From Octopus vulgaris (Eukaryota): a DNA stretch of 64,000 bases. The stretch's first letter is position 1; each line of letters starts with the position of its first letter. Location: positions 5,394,001-5,458,000 of the forward strand of contig OX597817.1 in the NCBI GenBank assembly GCA_951406725.2, in the 5' to 3' direction. The translations under genes were made by a program, and so were the position numbers. Positions 2,978 through 53,515 of the stretch are shown in pieces. The notes beneath the pieces are model-generated. The model ran no database searches, was not told where the DNA came from, and saw only the letters and a program-made list of their open reading frames with translations.

Positions 2978-3225
2978 AAGAAGAAGAAGAAGAAGAAGAA
3001 GAAGAAGAAGAAGAAGAAGAAGAAGAAGAAGAAGAAGAAGAAGAAGAAGAAGGAGAAGAAGTAGAAGAAGAAGAAGAAGAAGAAGAAGAAGAAGAAGAAG
3101 AAGGAGGAGAAGAAGAAGAAGATGATGATGATGATGATGATGATGAAGAAGAAGAAGAAGAAAAAGAAGAAGAAGAAGAAGAAGAAGAAGAAGAAGAAGA
3201 AGAAGAAGAAGAAGAAGAAGAAGAA
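2978..3225 (+). repeat. (GAA)n microsatellite with internal (GAT)8
   Basis: directly visible; abuts the 5' truncation point of an RLE retroelement. Confidence 0.98.
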
Positions 3226-3966
3226 TGAGACCATTGCTCATGTTGTCTTCATGTGCAGTTTTCTTGCGCCTACAGAGTATCTCAACAGGTATGATACAGC
3301 TTCACAATATATTCACTGGGTAATTTGCAAAAAAAAATGGACTTGCCCTATGATAAAACCTGGTGGGAACAAAAACCACATCCAATGCTTGAAACTGATC
3401 ACATCTCACGCCACTGGAACTTCACCATTCAAACTGAGAGAATGATAGATGCAAATAGCCCGGACATCATATTGAAAGACTTCAGACAAAAATCATGCCG
3501 CCTCGTTGATATGATTGTCCCAATCGATATAAACATATCTGTCAAGACCTACCAAAAACTGAGCAAGTATACAGATCTTGAAATAGAAATTAGCAAAATG
3601 TGGAACCTGAAAACTAAAACAATACCTGTTGTCATAGGTGCCCTGGGAATGATAGTAAAAGGGGCTGATTGCTACCTAGCTCAGATTTCAGGAAACACCA
3701 AAATAGCAGAAATTCAAAAGATAGTGCTCATGGGAAGTGCCCGTATCCTACGTATAATACTGTCTATGTAATCTCAAATTTTAAAACAAACACATAATTT
3801 TCTTAAGGTTTCGTAAACATTCTCTAGAACAACACTATGTACAGAATCAAATATATGACACCCTAGGCATAACACCAACATGAACTTCTAACTTGTTGTC
3901 CCTTGAAGTCTCTTGGTGGGACTTGTAGCCAACTTGTACAAATTTAAAGCAAAAGTCAAACATAAA
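3226..3966 (+). mobile_element. 5'-truncated R4/Dong-like non-LTR retrotransposon (RLE domain + 3' UTR)
   Basis: ETIAHVVFMC..LA..EYLNRYD (end of the CCHC knuckle and RHD), NSPDII..D...LVDMIVP..K..KY.DL..EI..MW...VVIGALG, i.e. a PD-(D/E)xK restriction-like endonuclease; frameshift in the A-run at ~3330. Confidence 0.9.
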
Positions 3967-5039
3967 TATGACTAGGTGGTTGCACGACCGTTTTATAGCA
4001 TAGCTAACTAAACCTCAGGTAAAAAGCTGGCATCCATAAAACAATTATTTTCATGGACTCCAAAATGGAAGGCAGTTACCATGAGACCGAAGACTTGGCC
4101 CCTATACTTGTAACAAATACATTTAAACTGCATTTTCCCTTGCGTGTTCTGAACGGGACATTGAATAAATTTACAAACCTGAAACAAAAACGATCCCTCC
4201 GTCGAACGACTGCGACATTTACTTCAGTGAAATCTCGCTCAAAAGGTTTTTCTTGCCCTAGGATTATGGTAAAAGGCATCAGCGTGTTGGGAAGTGAAAC
4301 GTGAGATGAATTAACAATTATAATTTTATCATGGTTAAATGGCTAAAATGAATCTCCACTGATGCACTACAACACAGTTTCCAAACAAATCATTTGCTAA
4401 ACAAGTACACCTCTGAGAAAAATAACATTACATTTAGAATCAGAAGAGTTAGATAATACGCAGAATTCGATGGTTTATGTTTGAAATGTTTTTAATGATT
4501 AATATAGTCAAGAAGAGGTGGTCAGGAGCTGAACGAAAGTTGACAGCTAACAATGCTGCAAGCATGAACATTCTTACGACCTATTTACATTTATATTTAC
4601 TCGCCTACACACTCAAGTTGATTATGAAATTCTGAATCAGTAAAATACAAATAAAATAAATATTTAATTAAATTCAGAAAATGTCAAAATTTAAAATTCA
4701 AAATAACAAGTGATTATGATGTTAAGGAAGAATAGAGAGAAATATCAACAAAATTAGTTATAATATAAATAAGAGTATGTTATGCATAGTATATATTCAT
4801 ATAAGCGTATAATATATATTTGTATATGTACTTGTATACGTGTGTATGCAGATATAGGTACAAGTGTTTGTGTGACTGTGCCTAGGTGTCAGTGCGTGTG
4901 CATGTGTGTGAGAGTTCAAGAAAGAATGGGTATGCAATTATGCAGGTAAACTGATAAAATTTACTAACGATCTTACTAATATATAACGCTATAGGCAAAC
5001 AATACTATGTTCACACATGAAATTATGATAACAGGAATT

Positions 5040-5435: not shown

Positions 5436-7118
<1,683 letters not shown>

Positions 7119-7605
7119 GGTCACAGAAAACGAAAAAGTAACCATACTCTGGGATATGCCAATACACACAGATAGAGAAATTAAGACCAACAGACCAGAT
7201 ATAGTTGTCAGAGATCATGAAGAAAAAAATGCTTTCTAATTGATGTATCAATACCAGCAGATGAGAACGTGCCACTAAAAGAATTGGAGAAACTTTCAAA
7301 ACACAAAGACCTGGAAATAGAGGTAACTCGAATGTGGAATCTAAAAACAGAAGCAATTCCTATCATAGTAGGTACATTAGGCATGATAAAAAAATATTCA
7401 GACAAATACATAACAAAAACACCAGGACTTACAAACACATATAACATACAGAAAATTGCACTACTAGGCACTGCACACATCCTACGCAGAACACTTTCCA
7501 TACAATAACCATCAGAGCATCACAACAAATCAGAGCACATACCCAAGGCACAGAGAGCTGCGCTCGGTAGTGAAGTGAAAGCACGCTATAAAAACAAAAC
7601 TACTG
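7119..7605 (+). mobile_element. family A copy 4
   Basis: VTENEKVTILWDMPIHTDREIKTNRPDIVV..KELEKLSK..LGTAHILRRTLSIQ plus 3' UTR. Confidence 0.93.
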
Positions 7606-15490: not shown

Positions 15491-15810
15491 AAGGCTGGTA
15501 TGTAGGTAGGTATGTAGACAGGCGGACTGACTGGCCAACAGACAGGCAGAATGCGATTGTAAATCACAGTATAGCGGTGACACGAAGCCCGTATTCTGTA
15601 TAACAATACACCTAACTTGTAAACATGATTTATTCCACCAAAACCCTTCCCAGGTGTTCAGAAAGATATATCTTCTTTACATACATGTGTCTCCTTGATC
15701 GTTACTCTCAAAATCTACTACCATTGGCTCTGAAACACGCTTAGAAGCTAACAGTATGCATATACTCAATAACACGATCAAGACATAGATAGATAGTTAG
15801 ATAGATAGAT

Positions 15811-18800
15811 ATGTTTCTTTATTAGCCACACAGGGCTGCACACAGATAGAACAAATTACAAGGTAGAGCTTTTCTTTTGAAGGTTTAAAAAAAAAAAAAA
15901 AAAAAAAGGAAGGGGGAGTTTCGATCAAAAGGGATCGTAAAAGGAGAGAAAGAGGACAAAAAAAGGGGGCTTAAAAAAAGGTGGAGAGGGAAAAAAAAAA
16001 AAAATTGATCAATAGGGATCGTTATCACGGAAATGTCAATATGAAGTGTAAAGGGGAGGACAGGTGAGGTTTACCCGTGAAAAGAAAAGCCTACGGAAAA
16101 GACCACGGTAACCTCGGTCAATGGAGTCACATGTTATATTTCTTTTTTTTTTTTTTTGCGAATAAGCAACTCTCTGTTTTCAATTTCTGGGTTCATAGGA
16201 TCATGCTCAAGGTGGCTTCGTCATTCATACGTGCCATTCTTGCTGCATTCACCCATCTTTTTTTAAAACATTCGCTAGACAAAACTTGCCTCTCTACTCT
16301 CATTTTCCTTTTCAAGTGGTACTTGAAGAAGTTGATGAGAGATTGACCAGAGAGGAAAGTGTTTGTCTCCAATCCTTTCAGACGCGTCCACCAGATACAT
16401 TCTTTCGCCATAGCCACAAGGATGATGAAAATAGCTCTTCCTTCCCGTTTGAAGGAGGGAGGCGTGACAATATTGACGATAGACTCAGCTGATAAACCGA
16501 CTCGTCCCACACGTGACAGCAGTTGTTCGACACAAGCCCACAGGTCGGAAATTGATGGACACTGCACGAGTGCGTGCAGAACGGTTTCGTCGCTCTGACC
16601 GCATCTCGGGCAGGTCGGCCCCGTGTTTCTCGAGCCGTGTCTGTAGAGCTTATCCCGAACGGGTAGCGCTTCTCGGTAGCATTGCCAGGCCAGGGATCTC
16701 TGGAAGTTGTCCATGGGCCCTGGCCCGAAAGTCGTCCTGAACAGGCGGGTCAGGTACTCCTCGTCGACGTCCAGGTTCGCCCCGAGCTCGTCGTCGTACC
16801 TCCCCTCTACTAAACCCCTATAGAATGCTTTGGTTGTGTTGAAGTCACTCAAGGTCGACCCAGGACGGCAGAGTTGCTTGAGAGCAACGCGACACTCGCG
16901 GTGCCATTCGCCCTTCTTCGGCCTCTTTTTGATCCACGACTGCAGTTCGGTCATGGAGACGAGCTTCGGGAAAGCGTGCCTCACAAACGGCGACCACACC
17001 TGTTCACCGTCGTCTACATAGAGCCAGAGTTGTCGCAGTCTCAGCGCGTGTCTGCGCATCATCAACCACGGCATGCCCAGCCCTCCTTTTAACGGGTGTT
17101 GACAGCAAATGGATCGCCTGACCATCAGGACGCATCCTTTCCACAAGAAGCGAAAGAGAATGCGTTGTAGTTTGGTGATGGTAGGGTCGGGACAAGGTAC
17201 GACGGTCAGGCGGTAGTAGATGACGGACGCGATGTACGTGTTCGCCACCTCCGCCCGACCTTTTAGGGACAGTTGCCTCTCGGTCCATTGCCGGGCGAGA
17301 GTGACCACCCTACTCGTTATCTCGTTCCAGTTCTTCTCCACTTGGAGGTCCGGACCAAACCAGACCTCGAGCAACTCAACCGGGCCGTCGGTCCAGCGTC
17401 CCACGACGGAGGCGCTGGTGGACGGCATGGGCTTGCTTCTCCAGGTGCCTAGTCGCAAGCCCACTGACTTTTCCCGGTTGATTTTCGCTCCTGTCACCGC
17501 TTCGTAGTTTTTCAGTGTCTCGCCGACCTGCTCGATGTGCTCGTGGCTAGACACTATGACGGTGACGTCGTCCGCGTATGCAGACACGCTCGTCCCGCAT
17601 CCCAGTTCTCGCGGGATGCCTCTCAAGGTTGCCAGCTTCCGCAATAATGGCTCGAGAGTCAATACGTATAGAAGCGACGAGAGGGGGCATCCCTGACGGA
17701 CCGAACGTGCGATGTCGAAGGGTCTCGATAGATGTCCATTCACGCGAATTACCGAACGGATGCCTCTGTACAAAGCAGCTATCCAGCCGCGGAAGACGGG
17801 ACCGAAGCCAGCCGCTCCGAGGACCGCCTCCAAGTATCGATGGTCCACCCTATCGAAAGCTTTCGATTGATCCAAATTGATCAGCGCCCCACCCATGCCA
17901 GGTTCGTTAACTACCCTGTCTATGATGTAGCGCATCAGGTGGAGGTTGTCATGGATGGTCCGGCCTGGCACGGCGCATGTTTGCGCCCTGTCGACCAGTT
18001 TCTCGATGACAAGCGCCAACCTCTTGGCTAGCACCTTGGCCAAAATTTTCAAGTCTGCATTAAGCAGAGTGATGGGCCTAAAGTTATCTATTACATTTCC
18101 CTTGTTTAGATCTTTCTTCAGCAGTGTTACGGCTCCTCGGCTCACAAAACCAGGAATGCTCCCGTTTTGCTGCCAGTTGCAGTACACCGCCGCCAAGAGA
18201 TCTCCAAACAAGTCTGGCATACAATTGTAAAGCTCGTAGGGTAGACCATCCAAACCCGGTGATTTGTCCCCCGAGCATTCTGCCATCGCTTCCTGCACTT
18301 CCGCCGCCGTGATGGCACCTTCGCAGCACCCTGCCTTTCTTGTCGAGAGTCGTGGTAGGCTATGTAGGTAGGCACTGAAGTCCACCCTACGTTCTTGCCC
18401 TCCACTCGTTCCGAACAGTCGGGCAAAATGCTGCTGAAAGGCCTCACACATTTTACTTGGCTCGAGCAATTCGCGCCCCTGTTCATCTACCAGGGACCGA
18501 ATGGTGGCTTTGTTGCCCTGTTGCGCCTCTGCCACCCGGGCCTCTCTCGCGGCTCCAACACCTTCGTTCCTTAGAGCACGCATCCTAGCTCTGACAGCAC
18601 ATCCTTCGTGTTTGGCGTTGAAGTGTTGGTCGAGGGCCAACCTCGCCGCCAAAACGTCGGATGCGATGCCGCTTCTAATTGCCTCTTCTAGCTTCTTAAC
18701 TAGCTCACCCTCTACTCTATTTCTATCTATGGCTAGTGCTTTGCTGTACCTAATCGCTTCTGCTTTTACTGCTCTCTTGAGGGCAAACCACCATTTGTTG

Positions 18801-19143
18801 TTGATGATGGCTCCCGTCAAAGCCCTCTTTACTAGTGTGCTAATCCGGTCTCTGAAAACCTGTCTCGATGGGAAAGACGCCTTTAGTTTCCAGTATCCGG
18901 GACCCTGCCTAAGTGTCTTACCTAAGTCTAGCGTACATGTCACAAGTTTGTGATCCGTGTAGCTGACTATGTGGAATTGTGGACAGCCTATGCTATCTCT
19001 GTCTACTGTCCTACACAATATCCTATCTAGATACGATCTCGACGACCCGATGCGGTTGCTCCATGTCCACGTTGGCACATTCGGGTGGTCTAGTCGGAAC
19101 CTGTCAGACAGTTGAAAGCGTCTGAGCAGGTCTCTGAGGCATT

Positions 19144-19144
<1 letters not shown>
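15811..19144 (-). mobile_element. young 5'-truncated Tx1/L1-clade LINE embedded in (TATC)n
   Basis: uninterrupted ORF2, CpG-rich, 3' UTR 15811-16192 ending aataaaagaaacat+(ATCT)n; (GATA)n on both sides. Confidence 0.96.
16193..19144 (-). CDS. ORF2 (5'-truncated, ~983 aa): APE endonuclease C-terminus, reverse transcriptase, C-terminal zf-RVT
   Basis: TWTW..SYLDRI..TDHKLV (APE); KSPGLDGL, FRPITLLNADLKILAK, LDQSKAFDRV, SVRQGCPLS, YADDV (RT); CPRCGQSDETVLHALVQC; no native start codon. Confidence 0.95.

Positions 19145-19224
<80 letters not shown>
19145..19224 (+). repeat. (GATA)20 between two Tx1 copies
   Basis: directly visible. Confidence 0.98.
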
Positions 19225-19225
<1 letters not shown>

Positions 19226-19748
19226 TGTGTCTTTATTAGACACACAGGGCTGCACACAGATAGAACAAATTACAAGGTAGAGCTTTTCTTTTGGGGGTAA
19301 AAAAAAAAAAGAGAGTGGTGGTTTTCGATCAAAAGGGATCGTAAAAGGAAAGAAAAAGGACAAATAAAGGGAGGTGTTTTAAAAAAGGGGGGTGGGGAGA
19401 GAAAAAAAATGAATAATAGGGATCGTTATCACAGAAATGTCAATATGAAGTGTAAAGGGGAGGACAGGTGAGGTTTACCCGTGGAAAGAAAAGCCTACGG
19501 AAAAGACCACGGTAACCTCGGTCAATGAAGTCACATGTTATATTTGTTTTTGTTTTTTTTTGCAAATAACTCTGTATTAATTTTTATGGTTCATAGAATC
19601 ATAGTCAAGGTGGCTTCGTCATTCATACGTGCCATCCTTGCTACATTCACCCATCTTTTTTTAAAACATTCACTAGACAAAACTTGCCTCTCTACTCTCA
19701 CTTTCCTCTTCAAGTGATACTTGAAGAAGTTGATGAGAGATTGACCAG
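19225..19748 (-). mobile_element. second, ~520-bp 3' copy of the same Tx1 family
   Basis: matches 15811-16350 (GQSLINFFKYHLKRK..MNDEATLTMIL plus 3' UTR) with substitutions. Confidence 0.96.
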
Positions 19749-19929
<181 letters not shown>

Positions 19930-20143: not shown

Positions 20144-23100
20144 ATGTATGTATGTATGTATGTATGTATGTATGTATGTATGTATGTATGTATGTATGTA
20201 TGTATGTATGTATGTATGTATGTATGTACGTAGGTATGTATGTATGTATGTATGTATGTATGTATGTATGTATGTATGTATGTATGTATGTATGTATGTA
20301 TGTATGTATGTATGTATGTATGTATGTATGTATGTATGTACGTAGGTATGTATGTATGTATGTATGTATGTATGTATGTATGTGTGCGTGTGTGTATGTA
20401 TGTATGTATGTATGTATGTATGTATGTATGTATGTATGTATGTATGTATGTATGTATGTATGTATGTATGTATGTATGTATGTATGTATGTATGTATGTA
20501 TGTATGTATGTATGTATGTATGTATGTATGTATGTATGTATGTATGTATGTATGTATGTATGTGTGCGTGTGTATGTATGTATGTATGTATGTATGTATG
20601 TATGTATGTATGTATGTATGTATGTATGTATGTATGTATGTATGTATGTATGTATGTATGTATGTATGTATGTATGTATGTATGTATGTATGTATGTATG
20701 TATGTATGTATGTATGTATGTATGTATGTATGTATGTATGTATGTATGTATGTATGTATGTATGTATGTGTGCGTGTGTGTATGTATGTATGTATGTATG
20801 TATGTATGTATGTATGTATGTATGTATGTATGTATGTATGTATGTATGTATGTATGTATGTATGTATGTATGTATGTATGTATGTATGTATGTATGTATG
20901 TATGTATGTATGTATGTATGTATGTATGTATGTATGTATGTATGTATGTATGTATGTATGTATGTATGTATGTATGTATGTATGTATGTATGTATGTATG
21001 TACGTAGGTATGTATGTATGTATGTATGTATGTATGTATGTATGTATGTATGTATGTATGTATGTATGTATGTATGTATGTATGTATGTATGTATGTATG
21101 TACGTAGGTATGTATGTATGTATGTATGTATGTATGTATGTATGTGTGCGTGTGTGTATGTATGTATGTATGTATGTATGTATGTATGTATGTATGTATG
21201 TATGTATGTATGTATGTATGTATGTATGTATGTATGTATGTATGTATGTGTGTGTATGTATGTATGTATGTATGTATGTATGTATGTATGTATGTATGTA
21301 TGTATGTATGTATGTATGTATGTATGTATGTATGTATGTATGTATGTATGTATGTGTGCGTGTGTGTGTATGTATGTATGTATGTATGTATGTATGTATG
21401 TATGTATGTATGTATGTATGTATGTATGTATGTATGTATGTATGTATGTATGTATGTATGTATGTATGTATGTATGTATGTATGTGTGCGTGTGTGTATG
21501 TATGTATGTATGTATGTATGTATGTATGTATGTATGTATGTATGTATGTATGTATGTATGTGTGCGTGTGTGTATGTATGTATGTATGTATGTATGTATG
21601 TATGTATGTATGTATGTATGTATGTATGTATGTATGTATGTATGTATGTATGTATGTATGTATGTATGTATGTATGTATGGTATGTATGTATGTATGTAT
21701 GTATGTATGTATGTATGTATGTATGTATGTATGTATGTATGTATGTATGTATGTGTGTGTATGTATGTATGTATGTATGTATGTATGTATGTATGTATGT
21801 ATGTGTGTATGTATGTATGTATGTATGTATGTATGTATGTATGTATGTATGTATGTATGTATGTATGTGTGTATGTATGTATGTATGTATGTATGTATGT
21901 ATGTATGTATGTATGTATGTATGTATGTATGTATGTATGTATGTATGTATGTATGTGTGTATGTATGTATGTATGTATGTATGTATGTATGTATGTATGT
22001 ATGTATGTATGTGTGTATGTATGTATGTATGTATGTATGTGTGTATGTGTGTATGTATGTATGTGTGTATGTATGTATGTATGTATGTATGTATGTATGT
22101 ATGTATGTATGTATGTATGTATGTATGTATGTATGTATGTATGTATGTATGTATGTATGTATGTATGTGTGTATGTGTGTATGTATGTATGTATGTATGT
22201 ATGTATGTATGTATGTATGTATGTATGTATGTATGTATGTATGTATGTATGTATGTATGTATGTATGTATGTATGTATGTATGTATGTATGTATGTATGT
22301 ATGTATGTATGTATGTATGTATGTATGTATGTATGTATGTATGTATGTATGTATGTATGTATGTATGTATGTATGTATGTATGTATGTATGTATGTATGT
22401 ATGTATGTATGTATGTATGTATGTATGTATGTATGTATGTATGTATGTATGTATGTATGTATGTATGTATGTATGTATGTATGTATGTATGTATGTATGT
22501 ATGTATGTATGTATGTATGTATGTATGTATGTATGTATGTATGTATGTATGTATGTATGTATGTATGTATGTATGTATGTATGTATGTATGTATGTATGT
22601 ATGTATGTATGTATGTATGTATGTATGTATGTATGTATGTATGTATGTATGTATGTATGTATGTATGTATGTATGTATGTATGTATGTATGTATGTATGC
22701 ATGCATGTATGTATGTATGTATGTATGTATGTATGTATGTATGTATGTATGTATGTATGTATGTATGTATGTATGTATGTATGTATGTATGTATGTATGT
22801 ATGTATGTATGTATGTATGTATGTATGTATGTATGTATGTATGTATGTATGTATGTATGTATGTATGTATGTATGTATGTATGTATGTGTGTGTGTATGT
22901 ATGTGTGTGTGTATGTATGTATGTATGTATGTATGTATGTATGTATGTATGTATGTATGTATGTATGTATGTATGTATGTATGTATGTATGTATGTATGT
23001 ATGTATGTATGTATGTATGTATGTATGTATGTATGTATGTATGTATGTATGTATGTATGTATGTATGTATGTATGTATGTATGTATGTATGTATGTATGT

Positions 23101-23883
23101 ATGTATGTATGTGTATGTATGTATGTATGTATGTATGTATGTATGTATGTATGTATGTATGTATGTATGTATGTATGTATGTATGTATGCATGCATGTAT
23201 GTATGTATGTATGTATGTATGTATGTATGTATGTATGTATGTATGTATGTATGTATGTATGTATGTATGTATGTATGTATGTATGTATGTATGTATGTAT
23301 GTATGTATGTATGTATGTATGTATGTATGTATGTATGTATGTATGTATGTATGTATGTATGTATGTATGTATGTATGTATGTATGTATGTATGTATGTAT
23401 GTATGTATGTATGTATGTATGTATGTATGCGTGCGTGCGTGTATGTATGTATGTATGTATGTATGTATGTATGTATGTATGTATGTATGTATGTATGTAT
23501 GTATGTATGTATGTATGTATGTATGTATGTATGTATGTATGTATGTATGTATGTATGTATGTATGTATGTATGTATGTATGTATGTATGTGTGTATGTAT
23601 GTATGTATGTATGTATGTATGTATGTATGTATGTATGTATGTATGTATGTATGTATGTATGTATGTGTGCGTGTGTGTATGTATGTATGTATGTATGTAT
23701 GTATGTATGTATGTATGTACGTAGGTATGTATGTATGTATGTATGTATGTATGTATGTATGTGTGCGTGTGTGTATGTATGTATGTATGTATGTATGTAT
23801 GTATGTATGTATGTATGTATGTATGTATGTATGTATGTATGTATGTATGTATGTATGTATGTATGTATGTATGTATGTATGTA

Positions 23884-23914
<31 letters not shown>

Positions 23915-24343
23915 ATGTATGTATGTATGTATGTATGTATGTACGTAGGTATGTATGTATGTATGTATGTATGTATGTATGTATGTATGTGTGCGTGTGT
24001 GTATGTATGTATGTATGTATGTATGTATGTATGTATGTATGTATGTATGTATGTATGTATGTATGTATGTATGTATGTATGTATGTATGTATGTGTGCGT
24101 GTGTGTATGTATGTATGTATGTATGTATGTATGTATGTATGTATGTATGTATGTATGTATGTATGTATGTATGTATGTATGTATGTATGTATGTATGTAT
24201 GTATGTATGTATGTATGTGTGCGTGTGTGTATGTATGTATGTATGTATGTATGTATGTATGTATGTATGTATGTATGTATGTATGTATGTATGTATGTAT
24301 GTATGTATGTATGTATGTATGTATGTATGTATGTATGTATGTA

Positions 24344-24376
<33 letters not shown>

Positions 24377-26680
24377 ATGTATGTATGTATGTATGTATGT
24401 ATGTATGTATGTATGTATGTGTGCGTGTGTGTATGTATGTATGTATGTATGTATGTATGTATGTATGTATGTATGTATGTATGTATGTATGTATGTATGT
24501 ATGTATGTATGTATGTACGTAGGTATGTATGTATGTATGTATGTATGTATGTATGTATGTATGTATGTATGTATGTATGTATGTATGTATGTGTGTATGT
24601 ATGTATGTATGTATGTATGTATGTATGTATGTATGTATGTGTGTATGTATGTACGTATGTATGTATGTATGTATGTATGTATGTATGTATGTATGTATGT
24701 ATGTATGTATGTATGTATGTATGTATGTATGTATGTATGTATGTATGTATGTATGTATGTATGTATGTATGTATGTGTGTATGTATGTATGTATGTATGT
24801 ATGTATGTATGTATGTATGTATGTGTGTATGTATGTATGTATGTATGTATGTGTGTATGTGTGTATGTATGTATGTGTGTATGTATGTATGTATGTATGT
24901 ATGTATGTATGTATGTATGTATGTATGTATGTATGTATGTGTGTATGTGTGTATGTATGTATGTATGTATGTATGTATGTATGTATGTATGTATGTATGT
25001 ATGTATGTATGTATGTATGTATGTATGTATGTATGTATGTATGTATGTATGTATGTATGTATGTATGTATGTATGTATGTATGTATGTATGTATGTATGT
25101 ATGTATGTATGTATGTATGTATGTATGTATGTATGTATGTATGTGTGTGTGTATGTATGTATGTATGTATGTATGTATGTATGTATGTATGTATGTATGT
25201 ATGTATGTATGCATGCATGTATGTATGTATGTATGTATGTATGTATGTATGTATGTATGTATGTATGTATGTATGTATGTATGTATGTATGTATGTATGT
25301 ATGTATGTATGTATGTATGTATGTATGTATGTATGTATGTATGTATGTATGTATGTATGTATGTATGTATGTATGTATGTATGTATGTATGTATGTATGT
25401 ATGTATGTATGTATGTATGTATGTATGTATGTATGTATGTATGTATGTATGTATGTATGTATGTATGTATGTATGTATGTATGTATGTATGTATGTATGT
25501 ATGTATGTATGTATGTATGTATGTATGTATGTATGTATGTATGTATGTATGTATGTATGTATGTGTGTATGTATGTATGTGTGTATGTATGTATGTATGT
25601 ATGTATGTATGTATGTATGTATGTATGTATGTATGTATGTATGTATGTATGTATGTATGTATGTATGTATGTATGTATGTATGTATGTATGTATGTATGT
25701 ATGTATGTATGTGTGTATGTATGTATGTATGTATGTATGTATGTATGTATGTATGTATGTATGTATGTATGTATGTATGTATGTATGTATGTATGTATGT
25801 ATGTATGTATGTATGTATGTATGTATGTATGTATGTATGTATGTATGTATGTATGTATGTATGTATGTATGTATGTATGTATGTATGTATGTATGTATGT
25901 ATGTATGTATGTATGTATGTATGTATGTATGTATGTATGTATGTATGTATGTATGTATGTATGTATGTATGTATGTATGTATGTATGTATGTATGTATGT
26001 ATGTATGTATGTATGTATGTATGTATGTATGTATGTATGTATGTATGTATGTATGTATGTATGTATGTATGTATGTATGTATGTATGTATGTATGTATGT
26101 ATGTATGTATGTATGTATGTATGTATGTATGTATGTATGTATGTATGTATGTATGTATGTATGTATGTATGTATGTATGTATGTATGTATGTATGTATGT
26201 ATGTATGTATGTATGTATGTATGTATGTATGTATGTATGTATGTATGTATGTATGTATGTATGTATGTATGTATGTATGTATGTATGTATGTATGTATGT
26301 ATGTATGTATGTATGTATGTATGTATGTATGTATGTATGTATGTATGTATGTATGTATGTATGTATGTATGTATGTATGTATGTATGTATGTATGTGTAT
26401 GTATGTATGTATGTATGTATGTATGTATGTATGTATGTATGTATGTATGTATGTATGTATGTATGTATGTATGTATGTATGTATGTATGTATGTATGTAT
26501 GTATGTATGTATGTATGTATGTATGTATGTGTGTATGTATGTATGTATGTATGTATGTATGTATGTATGTATGTATGTATGTATGTATGTATGTATGTAT
26601 GTATGTATGTATGTATGTATGTATGTATGTATGTATGTATGTATGTATGTATGTATGTATGTATGTATGTATGTATGTAT
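20144..26680 (+). repeat. 6.5-kb (TATG)n array with recurrent variant units
   Basis: directly visible; variants tacgtagg, tgtgcgtgtg and gcatgcatg recur. Confidence 0.99.
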
Positions 26681-27799: not shown

Positions 27800-28179
27800 A
27801 CAAGGCTCATTTGTTTAAATCAAGACAACTTATGCAGTTTGCTGATGAGAGAATTGCTTACATGTATGTTTGAATATATGAGTGTTATCAAACTTTCATC
27901 CATGCCGTTTAATGAAACGGTTTGCATTGAGTATCCAGCCGTGTGTATATTCCATCTGTGCTTATAATCATGTGCATGTAATCAATCCAAGAAACCGAAA
28001 TGGACAATACTTAAGATGTTTGACAAATTTTCACTGTATCCCTGATCGATTGTGTTTGAAGGATGCGAATCAGTTTCCTGTGCACTTTCTTGGAGATTCC
28101 CAATATTTCTTGGTTTTTATGCAAATTTCTTCTTAGGCCCAGTGCACATCTAATTCGTACAAATGAAAACCTATTGCCT
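27800..28179 (-). mobile_element. RLE non-LTR family B 3' fragment (diverged)
   Basis: RFSFVRIRCALG..EILGISKK..RKLIRILQTQSIRDTVKICQT aligns with 28396-28668; (CATA)n on its 5' side. Confidence 0.7.
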
Positions 28180-28253
28180 GTATGTATGTATGTATATATG
28201 TATACACGCATGTATGTATGTATGTTTGTATGTATGTATGTATGTATGTATGT

Positions 28254-28685
28254 CATTATTCAGTTTTATTTCGAGATTTCTTGTCAATAGAGAGAGAAAC
28301 AGATTCTAACCTAGATCCAAGGCTCCTTCATTGGAATTTCAACATCAACAATAGTGTATTTCTGTATGTATATATGCAGATTTGCATGTTTTGCTTTATG
28401 TATGTATTCCCATGAATATAGCTGCATGTCTAGACAGCATGCTATTGAATACTTCAATGATAAACTTCTGGAAAGTTCTACAGATTTGTAACGTTCCACT
28501 GATGGCTTGGATCAATAGTCTTCGAATCATCCTTCTCTTTTCTGGTTTTGAGAAACCTAATAACTTAACATTGGTATTTAGGCAGTGTGTTACATCTTGC
28601 AGTGCCCCAATAATTACAGGTATAAACCAAAAGTTATAACCTGGATAGAGTATCTGTAGATTCCTCAATAGTTCAGCGTAGATGT
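28254..28685 (-). mobile_element. RLE non-LTR family B 3' fragment with 3' UTR
   Basis: YAELLRNLQILYPGYNFWFIPVIIGAL..LGFSKPEKRRMIRRLLIQAISGTLQICRTFQKF, typical of the R2/R4-group RLE C-terminus; (TATG)n at 28180-28253 and 28686-28852. Confidence 0.82.
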
Positions 28686-30182
28686 AAGTATGTATGTATG
28701 TATGTATCTATGTACGTATGTATGTATGTATGTATGTATGTATGTATGTATGTATGTATGTATGTATGTATGTATGTATGTATGTTTGTATGTATGTATG
28801 TGTGTATGTATGTATGTATGTATGTTTGTATGTTTGTATGTATGTATGTATACTCACGAGGAATATGCATAAACACCCACCAAGAAAATTATGAAAGCGA
28901 TCTTTCAGTTGACTGAGAAAATTCTTTTGGATTGAGGTTTTTATTTCTGATATGTTTGTCTTTTCGTTTTATACTTTACCAAATTCGCTATCGTTTCATT
29001 TTGAGGGTTCCGTGGTTTTGGGGTTTTCTTTTATAATTACAGATATATTGCTTTCTTAATATCATCCTTTTTTATGAATGTTTGCTTAAGACTTCGGACT
29101 GCTTTTCTCTTAGTGTTGGGTTTGAGTGGATTGGACCTTCTAGCAGCATCATAATGTGATGTAACCTACTATTCGTGAGTCGTAAAATTAGAAATGATTT
29201 GAAACACCTCAAATCTGCATTTTTTATACCTCGATGGGCCGTTTGTGTAACTATTTCTCATTGTTAGTGAGTGCTTCTCCCTTATAGCGTGGATTGCCAT
29301 TGATATTGAGTTTATTGGTTTGCAGATTAGCGCTTACGTTTACGGATACAAATCGATAATAGATATTCTGTTAAGTTATGTCTCTTCTAATAGATGGCTT
29401 GAACCTACGCTAGATCAAACCTACATCCGTATGGTTTGCTTGTTCCATTCTGAATGTGTCCTAGAAAAAAAACCGTATCAAATAAATAATGTAGAAGTTA
29501 CATCCAAAAGTATTAGACACTATTAGAGCGAAAGACAGTACTAGACATGTAAGGAGGAAATGGTTAATAAGAACCAACGATTATAACACTGTGATCTTAA
29601 TCGCATTGCAAGAGCTGCAAAATCTTCAATCTGTAAACAGATGACACAAATATCGTTGAGAAAAGAATAAGATAACACGTAAAATAAAGAATAGTGGAAT
29701 ATACCAGAATCATGCAAAAACAAATTAATTCCCATCATGGTGATGATTACTAAAAAAAATGATACGGATTTTATACTTTTGCTTCAAGTCCTGTGTCCTT
29801 GTAGTTTTGTATCATTTTGTTATCTTTCATTTATTATTAATCCATTTGCTTCGAGACTTGATTCTTCATATTAGTGCATTTCTTGACTCTGTGAAACAGC
29901 GTCAAGATACCGCATAAGTTTTCTTACAATGTAAATTTCGGCCTTGTTAATAATACAATTAGATTAGGAGCGCCTATCTGAACGTTAATATTTACAAGAT
30001 CCTTACTAATATCAATCAGATTTGATTTTGCTTAATTCATATAACTCATAAACACACACACGCACACACATACGAAAACACACAGAGAATACGAAGATAG
30101 GACACACATGGAGAGAGGAACAAAAAGGAAGAGAAAGGAAATTTGTCTAGAGAGAGATAAAGGGAGAAAAACCGAGCGACAC

Positions 30183-37410: not shown

Positions 37411-37499
37411 GGATCGATCGCTCGATCGATCAATGGATATGTATATGTATGTATATATCTATCTATCTATGTATCTATCTATGTATGTATACGTGCATA

Positions 37500-37653
37500 C
37501 TTGCATGATTTGTTTTGTGCATGTGTCCTCATGTATATAGTTTCATTCATATCTAGAGATACTCATATATACATAAATGATAAACTTCTGGGAAGTTTTA
37601 CAGATTTTTACAGTTCCTGTGATGGCTTGGATTGTCAGTCTTCGAATCAGCTT
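37500..37653 (-). mobile_element. RLE family B 3' fragment
   Basis: KLIRRLTIQAITGTVKICKTSQKFII matches 28440-28530; degenerate (TATG)n at 37654-37871 on its 5' side. Confidence 0.82.
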
Positions 37654-37842
37654 GTATGTATGTATGCATTCATGTATGTATGTATGTATGTATGTATGCA
37701 TGTATGCATGTATGTATGTATATATGCATTCATGTATGTATGCATTCATGTATGTATGTATATGTATGTATGTATGTATGTATGCATTCATGCATGTATG
37801 TATATGCATGTATGTATGTATGTATGCATGCATGCATGCATT

Positions 37843-37871
<29 letters not shown>

Positions 37872-37874
<3 letters not shown>

Positions 37875-39331: not shown

Positions 39332-39496
39332 TAGGGCGGCGGTAAAGAATACATACACCACCCACTTTCGGCGTAACAAAAAATCCAACCCTAAGCTTTA
39401 ACCCTAACCCTAAACCCTAATCCTAACCCTAAACCCTAAACCCTAAACCTAACCCTGAACACTTGGCGTACGTATTCTTTATTTTCACCGAGCCTA
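39332..39496. mobile_element. MITE-like inverted-repeat element enclosing telomere-like (CCCTAA/CCCTAAA)n
   Basis: ta-gggcggcggtaaagaatacatacacca ... tggcgtacgtattctttattttcaccgagcc-ta around ~10 degenerate units at 39386-39456. Confidence 0.7.
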
Positions 39497-51849: not shown

Positions 51850-53515
51850 AACAATTGAGATTCATTTGAATTAGGTACTTAAGTTGAAGCACCAAGTCAG
51901 TGCGATATTGTCCGAACAACTCAAAGTAAGATGAATAAAATTAAAATAAGCAACAGGATATAAGGAGGTGATGCAGCACGACCGTTTCAAGCGACTCCAT
52001 TTAAATGAACAATGCTATCATTACATCAATTTAAATGCAGATCTATCCTCAGCTACATAAATAAATAAAATTTTCATATTTTAGGCTCAAGCATAAGGCC
52101 AATTGCACGTCCTTATCTAGCAAGATTTGGGAACTGAAGGAAAGCGGTATCGAATTTAGCCTTAAATTGGATATTATAAGGAAAGCGCAGCCTTATAGAG
52201 ATAGTCGATACGGGTGCGAGCTGTGCTTTATCAAAACTTATGAAATTTTTAAATATAGGGCCAAGAGCAACCTGGTTAATAATAGATTAGACCTAAGGTA
52301 TCATGTGTACATAGGGTCACCCGAACATGTAAATATTTTCGAAATTAACGTTTATAGGTGCTGCAATGGAACCTGGATAAGGGAAATTAATATTAACGTT
52401 GTATATGATGCGAACTTACTCCCTAGTATTGTATACAATAAGTTATATATATTTTCTATAATTCCTTATTGTGTTTTCGTATGTTGATGCCTTTACCTAT
52501 CAACCTCTTATCTCTTATAAGTTATTAATGTTCCTCCAGAGAAATATAAACTTTCTAATTACTTAAGTCTAGAAGAGTTGATTATAACATACCCAAAATA
52601 AAGTACAAATATTTGTGTATATTTATGTGTGCACATGGTTAAATATGTGTATGTATCTGTGCAACTTATTGTTCCGATTTTTTTTCTGATTCTTAGCTTA
52701 TAACTAATATAAAGATAATATGATTTATCGCTCCAGTATTCCATAAGTAAAAACCCAGAGTGATCTATAGAAACCACCTTATAAGTAAATAATTAAGTAC
52801 AGGAATGAATATTAAACTAATTCTATATAATCTTCCCTTTCTAATGTTGAAAACTGGTATATATACACAGTTTGTCTATTCTGACTATAATATCATTTTT
52901 AGTAATCTTAAATTTTATCTTCGTACAACATAACAATACTGTTTATATACAATCATCCATTGTATCCCATGAAAATATCCTCTGTATTAACATCATATGC
53001 TTTATTTGCGTCTTGCCCCTTTAAGTGGTAATTAACATCTTGATTGAGGGTCTTCCCCTATCCAGCCTCCTTTATAGACATTTATGCATTTCCTAAAATC
53101 CTGACAATATTTAAGACCATACCCAACTATAAACTGTCAACTCACTCCGTCTATCCATTCTAAACAGACACTGTCCTCTAGCCTTAGATTTGGTAGTTGA
53201 TAAAAAAAGACTGATAATCTAAAAATGAACCACAATCTGTTACAAGCTACGACCCTAAGAAACTTCATACAGTTCTTAGAAGTGTAGTATATTTTGAGCT
53301 ACATTAGTAGCAACATGGATTTTCCCTCTTCTTGCTCAATTAGAAAATTACAGTAAAAATATATTAACGTGTCCAGCTGATTAAAAATTCTATTTATGCA
53401 GCTGAGGATAGCCCTGCATTTAAATTGGTGTAATGATTGCATTGTTCACTTAAATGGAGCAGCTTGAAACGGTCATGCTGTATCACCTCTTGAGATCCTT
53501 TTGCATATTTTGATA
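51850..53515 (+). mobile_element. 5'-truncated Penelope-like (Neptune-type) element with inverted pLTR copy at its 5' end
   Basis: KHKANCTSLSSKIWELKESGIEFSLKLDIIRKAQPY..GCELCFIK..LVNNR (GIY-YIG C-terminus); 51950-52070 is the rc of 53390-53510, both with CTGAGGA..GAAAC. Confidence 0.85.

Follow-up and report, generated by a model that had tools for sequence, protein, structure and literature searches.

The stretch of Octopus vulgaris DNA analysed here (the window, 64,000 nucleotides) lies in a genome of 2.8 Gb that is rich in microsatellites. Near its start, a long tract of GAA-type triplets adjoins the truncated 5' end of a LINE whose 3' end carries no repeat, which raises the question of whether the tract was in place when the element arrived, was made as it integrated, or arose later. 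The reading that we favour, with some reserve, is that of a microsatellite-targeting RLE LINE at whose 5' junction a GAA run was seeded during integration by re-priming and then lengthened by replication slippage.

The GAA tract and the LINE at 2978-3966

The features of the locus are as follows.

2200-2977, no strand: left flank (2600-2977 single-copy in the genome)
2978-3225, forward strand: (GAA)n tract of 82 units, including a (GAT)8 block and five substituted units (TRF period-3 array, 82.7 copies)
3226-3966, forward strand: RLE LINE ("family X"), 5'-truncated, 741 bases, adjoining the GAA tract
3295-3771, forward strand: remnant frame with a PD..D..K.KY motif, seen by eye and without a Pfam match, which we take to mark a restriction-like endonuclease (RLE)
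3967-4600, no strand: right flank (3967-4500 single-copy)

The tract comprises 69 GAA, eight GAT, three GGA, one GTA and one AAA unit, in agreement with the approximately 83 GAA/GAT triplets that the sequence-only reading had placed against the truncation point. The first base of the element falls within the zinc knuckle and its last is the family 3' end, without a TAA tail; since 3966 continues straight into unique sequence, the absence of a repeat tract on this side was also correctly described. The closest relatives of the copy are only 88-91% identical to it, and it is therefore old. The GAA tract is old as well, with its five substituted units and its presence in sequencing runs that are 96% identical, and has no TAA on either side. 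The family X sequence at the truncation point offers AA only and no GAA seed. An internal acidic linker, considered as a source of the tract, was rejected, family X having no such linker in the 520 bases upstream of this point. Blocks of (GAA)≥10 are common, the window and the repeat-enriched loci (about 2.06 Mb together) containing 67 of them, and a single GAA tract beside a LINE is therefore not in itself beyond chance. For the 82-unit tract taken alone, we regard the case for seeding at integration followed by lengthening as evenly balanced.

The flanks had been read as contiguous old coding sequence of a Helitron, a reading that comparison did not confirm. No Pfam family rose above noise in 12 frames, the best tblastn match, obtained against two relatives of the Helitron-like fragment in the window that have long ORFs and are presumably Helitrons, had an E value of 0.33, and similarity to the Helitron-like copies was not significantly greater than that of shuffled sequences (p 0.17-0.93); the faint motif resemblance of the flanks to a Helitron-like Rep protein gave no significant match. 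The left flank is preceded in the window by a 159-base direct repeat of 92% identity (159-317 and 1939-2097), its copies 1.8 kb apart.

No empty allele was found among paralogues, each flank matching itself alone in the genome search, or seen in the public sequencing runs X2, X5, X9, X10 and X11. Runs X5 and X10 (96% identical, sister-species-like) both pass through the left flank into GAA, their contigs stopping 13 letters past 2988, and so have the start of the tract in common; on the same side, the contigs of X9 and X11 end short of the tract. The junction between the tail-less LINE 3' end and the right flank is held by X2, another sample under the same species label. The right flank (3985-4600) has no cover in X5 and X9, sister-species-like runs that hold the left flank, and X11 covers 4093-4430, preceded by 68 unlike letters. 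A deletion or rearrangement beside the insertion is possible from the missing cover at 3985-4600, a gap in a contig set being no proof of absence.

Tract lengths and microsatellite targeting

The window holds further LINE copies beside microsatellites.

5436-5610, forward strand: 5' flank of a family A copy, made up of a (TAA)24 target and then (GAA)34 at the junction
5611-6396, forward strand: family A copy, 5'-truncated, of a young TAA-targeting RLE LINE, 98% identical to the reference copy
6397-7605, forward strand: two family A copies, each preceded by (TAA)39, with truncation point and tract interruption in common
15785-19926, reverse strand: two tandem Tx1-like copies (15812-19143 and 19226-19748) within (TATC)n
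28179-28851, reverse strand: RLE LINE fragment of family B (28254-28681), bordered by 75 bp of (ACAT)n at 3' and 170 bp at 5'
37476-37872, reverse strand: another fragment of family B (37476-37649), whose 5' side carries 220 bp of degenerate (ACAT)n

The elements at 15785-19926 we take to be Tx1, following the sequence-only reading; the window copy is truncated, and Pfam gave RVT_1 and zf-RVT only. The RLE-type look of the ACAT-flanked family B was judged by eye. At 6397-7605, the identical truncation point and interrupted (TAA)39 suggest that the two copies arose by tandem duplication and not as independent insertion events. A 6.5 kb (ATGT)n array (20144-26680, 1635 units, 97% match) lies immediately next to the Tx1-like copies. 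The window also contains a degenerate (AACCCT)11 at 39387-39460, presumably an interstitial telomeric repeat, and a frame at 52065-52487 that we take to resemble the C-terminus of Penelope-like elements.

From these neighbours the sequence-only reading had drawn a recurrent excess of repeat on the 5' side. The (GAA)34 wedged between (TAA)n and the 5' end of the second family A copy is indeed present, as (TAA)24(GAA)34. The Tx1 tracts of about 6, 20 and 45 units have the sizes claimed (6.8, 20.5 and 44.5 units of TATC) but do not form an asymmetry, as the 20-unit tract serves two neighbouring copies at once, the one as its 3' tail and the other as its 5' flank. Likewise, the (CATA)n tracts at family B 5' junctions exist (170 and 220 bp), but the first copy has 75 bp at its 3' end too. 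In genome samples, from which unresolved 5' ends were left out (5/58 in family X, 10/30 in family A, 14/29 in Tx1, 3/29 in family B), no family has a 5' excess. In family X the median 5' tract measures 59 bp and the median 3' tract 77 bp (53/58 copies resolved), the 5' tract being longer in 20 copies and the 3' tract in 32 (p 0.14). The corresponding family A values are 62 and 99.5 bp, with the 5' tract longer in 8/20 (p 0.18; 20/30 resolved), in a set that includes the window copy and six 5' junctions scored 0, some through an intervening duplication. The 5' tract was longer in 6 and the 3' tract in 9 Tx1-like copies (p 0.35; 15/29 resolved), and in 9 and 15 copies of family B (p 0.97; 26/29 resolved). 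Tract lengths are thus symmetric in all four families, and the broader claim that LINEs make long flanking tracts is not supported.

What the families do share is one unit on both sides, namely TAA in families X and A, TATC in the Tx1-like elements and ACAT in family B. A scored 3' triplet tract, mostly TAA, follows 28/29 other family X copies. In family A, TAA comes first in 186/196 of the 3' tracts and another unit in none; (TATC)n stands at 26/29 of the 3' ends and 12/15 of the resolved 5' ends of Tx1-like copies. Insertion into (TAA)n therefore holds family-wide, with TAA at 3' and mostly at 5', and the copy at 3226-3966 is the exception, an outlier within a TAA-targeting family. The bulk of the flanking repeats is pre-existing target, and microsatellite targeting is a known habit. 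Families A and X also insert into each other's TAA tails, giving mixed tandem chains (L096, L124, L162, L319, L320).

Reiterated 5' ends in family A

Family A is young, its copies mostly 97-99% identical and about 3.96 kb long, with 6064 exact 3'-end matches in the genome and 431 matches to the 5' UTR motif. The sample comprised the first 69 full-length 5' ends listed on contigs C1-C2. In 29 of them, the opening bases of the element are present one or more additional times, in tandem, between the TAA target and the element body; about 20/69 have two or more extra units, with a maximum of 16. Reiteration at the 5' junction of family A is real and frequent. The units measure about 17-80 bases (mostly 17-44, one of 78), and 88 of them comprise 55 distinct sequences, although some lengths recur (23, 28 and 19 bases). 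Every unit begins anew from the 5' head of the element, and the points at which units end cluster after G, AG or AGA, which matches the purine-rich character of that head. Units carry the variant of their own copy (for example a run of five G), lengths are mixed within arrays, and copy number has no trend with age (rho 0.06, p 0.61). In L335 a variant occupies alternate units, which suggests the copying of units already made. Target-like TAA pieces are interleaved in the arrays of L120 and L260, the shortest units lie closest to the target in L256, L263, L335, L357 and L369, and nearest-neighbour copies often also hold two or more units.

The reiteration extends to truncated copies. In a strict test of the last 1.5 kb, duplications were found at 4/103 truncated 5' junctions versus 0/166 3' junctions (p 0.02), and no internal duplication was found in 117 kb, in a control blind to any duplication by which an alignment is split. 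Random truncation points within the ORF are affected (L172, with about 8 units, L085 and L158), and similar duplications were seen at 5' ends of family X (L096, L293, L326) and of another RLE family (L307). The pattern-picked sets come from contigs C1-C2 and required an exact 3' motif, and the BLAST-picked sets favour copies resembling the query. We consider it likely that the arrays were made at integration.

Tandem units of 17-33 bases are likewise reiterated at the 5' junctions of a frequent TAA-flanked, non-coding element (L088, L089, L105, L160, L175, L331, L355), which is probably a passenger of the same machinery. Separately, an inverted piece of the element, read by eye, was noted at the 5' side of family A copies L117, L156 and L165.

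GAA and GGA runs at 5' junctions

Short-unit runs have the same polarity. GAA or GGA blocks stand at 11/206 of the 5' and 0/196 of the 3' junctions of family A, in a set enriched for full-length ends by sampling, and at 7/118 versus 1/122 in family X, where the seven include the copy at 3226-3966 and one duplicated pair. Tracts of mixed strand and cases of the internal linker were left out of these counts and of the count of family A 3' tracts given above; L047 and L264 were removed because they are duplicates. In genome-wide searches whose two patterns tolerated gaps (8 and 5 bases), a run of five variant triplets stood ahead of a full-length family A 5' end at 34 loci (30 GAA, 3 CAA, 1 GAT) and behind a family A 3' end at 38 (4 GAA, 14 CAA, 19 GAT, 1 CAT), so that GAA relates to other units as 30:4 at 5' and 4:34 at 3' (p 1e-11). 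At two loci such a run leads into an array, with (GGA)5 ahead of longer units beginning GGA in L357 and (GAA)10 ahead of 44-base units beginning with the same motif in L369. The suggestion that repeats are added at the 5' junction survives in a narrowed form for family A, on the strength of the reiterated 5' end and of GAA/GGA runs that are nearly absent at 3'; the asymmetry offered as its evidence fails, and it finds no support for Tx1 or family B, for which tract lengths alone were tested.

GAA-ended tracts make up 17/365 LINE 5' junctions and 13/471 other tract ends, which is not significant (p 0.19). The ratio of GAA to CAA/GAT blocks is nevertheless 17:5 at LINE 5' junctions against 13:48 at other ends (p 5e-6), and this near exclusion of CAA and GAT argues that GAA at LINE junctions is not a random piece of target. 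Furthermore, a GAA block is first in a TAA-containing tract in 0/47 cases and last in 29, with GAT and CAA found at both ends, and this suggests that another, or a general, polar process may act.

An element seed is present at 5/11 GAA junctions of truncated copies and at 28/170 TAA junctions (p 0.03). Neither GAA junction of the window has one. The window family A copy has no GAA seed at its truncation point and clusters with short-linker copies; its GAA may stem from the linker that lies some 150 bases further upstream, reached by a skip. The internal GAA/GAT run of family A is at most 36 bp in 32/35 copies and 150-159 bp in 3/35, from which it appears that seeds of up to 36 bp do not normally grow in copies this young. 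The in-frame GAA linker, which encodes poly-Glu, is about 50 codons long in one family A subgroup (L142, L144, L148; also L112 and L123) and 9-12 codons long in young copies.

A proposed model of re-priming at the 5' junction

Most probably, once the cDNA has been made, the target's free 3' end, in TAA, pairs with the cDNA end by one to three purines, is extended briefly, drops off and re-anneals at the cDNA end, and several such abortive priming rounds precede processive second-strand synthesis. In this model, cycles of 17-80 bases would yield a minisatellite of the element's 5' end, and cycles of three bases on the purine-rich head would yield (GAA)n or (GGA)n, which ordinary replication slippage would probably lengthen later. 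The polymerase could be the element RT or host polymerase theta. The old copy at 3226-3966 offers AA only at its truncation point, and its seed would therefore have to be untemplated. Priming from the target TAA is favoured by the target-like pieces in the L120 and L260 arrays and by the position of the shortest units nearest the target. A bolder version, which we put forward only tentatively, is that the Dong-like RT itself carries out telomerase-like reiterative synthesis at the 5' junction, routinely writing GAA, GGA and 17-80 base arrays, also for truncated copies and passengers, and that this is a main cause of GAA lying only at the 3' side of TAA tracts in this genome.

The closest rival differs only in the strand that is made. 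In first-strand reiteration, the RT would run off the RNA 5' end, add untemplated bases, jump back, landing on internal microhomology or on short 5' RNA fragments, and recopy the end several times in the manner of telomerase. The R2 RT is described as adding untemplated bases at run-off and jumping templates (PMC2718515, PMC11331408), the junction sequences predicted are identical, and the unit heads are heterogeneous. Nothing decisive speaks against it; we read the TAA pieces in L120 and L260 as a target-anchored primer, yet they fit either model, and we hold first-strand reiteration to be rather unlikely.

At 2978-3966 itself, similarly doubtful odds attach to the possibility that GAA pre-existed and the LINE entered at its edge, or that a later deletion took the 3' TAA tail and joined a new flank. 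Such a history would suit the 24/39 GAA-ended (GAA)≥10 tracts without a recognised LINE downstream, the two runs with the left flank and no cover of the right flank, the 68 unlike letters before 4093 in a third run, and the failure of the comparisons to tie both flanks to a single old gene. The contig gaps are a poor witness for deletion, as said, and a pre-existing tract sits badly with the near exclusion of CAA and GAT at LINE 5' junctions (5 versus 17 GAA), units commoner than GAA at other ends (48 versus 13).

Slippage after insertion, with no part for integration, is a little less probable still, and we think it unlikely. Here, a TAA tract would come to lie beside the A/G-rich element end and its junction units would later be converted and expanded. 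Variant blocks of GAT, CAA and GAA are common in TAA tracts, the 38 family A 3' ends mentioned above begin with one, the seed is enriched at GAA junctions, and the 82-unit tract is old and compound; moreover, the full-length family A head is itself GAA-like, so that later slippage could extend GAA from it. Left unexplained are arrays that always restart at the 5' end, with mixed unit lengths and no age trend, the absence of internal and 3' duplications, and an internal GAA run that is stable in young copies.

Finally, source elements might hold tandem 5' UTR monomers, as mouse L1 does, of which copies retain a variable number, and the recurring unit lengths and multi-unit nearest neighbours would agree with this, but unit length and sequence vary among near-identical copies and within arrays, and duplications also occur at random ORF truncation points of families A and X and in the non-coding passenger, which makes such inheritance very improbable.

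Significance

The original observation is largely known microsatellite targeting plus one odd copy, and it is the 5'-junction reiteration that rescues a narrower form of the idea behind it. In the literature searched, with subscription papers mostly outside it, we found no description of tandem reiteration of a LINE's own 5' end or of microsatellite birth on the 5' side, and Repbase reports and supplements could show it; the parts available of PMC13580325, bioRxiv 2024.12.14.628481 and PMC2881922 likewise make no mention of such 5' arrays. The joining of the 5' end and the priming of the second strand form the least understood step of non-LTR retrotransposition, and one that limits R2-based gene insertion (PMC13000458 section 25). 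Failed priming cycles recorded at about 40% of full-length insertions, in a family with hundreds of copies, would make this step readable from sequence and open to tests in vitro and, if the model is true, would mean that LINEs give rise to microsatellites in a new way, on the 5' side, in addition to the known way through the 3' tail.

Comparison with known systems

Families A and X most resemble Dong, a member of the R4 clade, in what looks like one long RT frame with a C-terminal knuckle and an RLE-like motif, and in TAA on both sides. TAA repeats are given as the target of Dong (PMC3812793, PMC2887409), and a Dong element has been reported in octopus (PMC9115989). The families here differ in their reiterated 5' ends, for which we found no mention in the literature searched on Dong. 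Family A copy L130 encodes 741 and 395 amino acids, one frame split by a stop, with RVT_1 and zf-RVT matches and the RLE motif seen by eye; no intact family A ORF longer than 1000 amino acids was found in the 100 loci scanned. Its RT region is closest to R2 among solved structures, the only ones that matched (E 1e-27 to 5e-20). The N-terminal region, where R2 has zinc fingers and a Myb domain, gave no Pfam match, and R2 structure matches start at residue 448, which is weak as a negative. Placement in the R2 clade is not supported by the target, as family A is flanked by TAA tracts at dispersed sites rather than by 28S rDNA.

For the other families, Kibi and Koshi (TC, TTC), Waldo (ACAY) and Togen (TG) are described as inserting into pre-existing microsatellites (PMC3812793, PMC4640811), a habit that fits the Tx1-like (TATC) and family B (ACAT) elements, although the units differ. 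Waldo is listed as APE-type, whereas the ACAT-flanked family B looks RLE-type by eye.

A precise 3' junction with a variable 5' junction, microhomology and template jumps are familiar from other systems (PMC2718515, PMC11331408, PMC13000458), and R2 protein is able to synthesise the second strand in vitro, where priming is imprecise, untemplated bases are added and the enzyme jumps between templates (PMC13000458). In these papers, target duplications, snap-backs or a second template appear as minor classes; by contrast, about 40% of full-length family A copies have reiterated 5' ends, with 2-16 tandem copies of the element's own 5' end. LINE 3' tails are reported to seed microsatellites (RTE in Lepidoptera; CR1-L3 and Rex in squamates), with RT slippage proposed as the cause (PMC2887409, PMC6050309). 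There the repeats lie at 3' and come from the RNA tail, whereas here the tract and arrays stand at 5' junctions and the unit is unlike the tail. Polymerase theta copies nearby sequence by repeated primer-template switching, and the octopus arrays would differ from its insertions in that their units appear to restart at one fixed end, in up to 16 copies.
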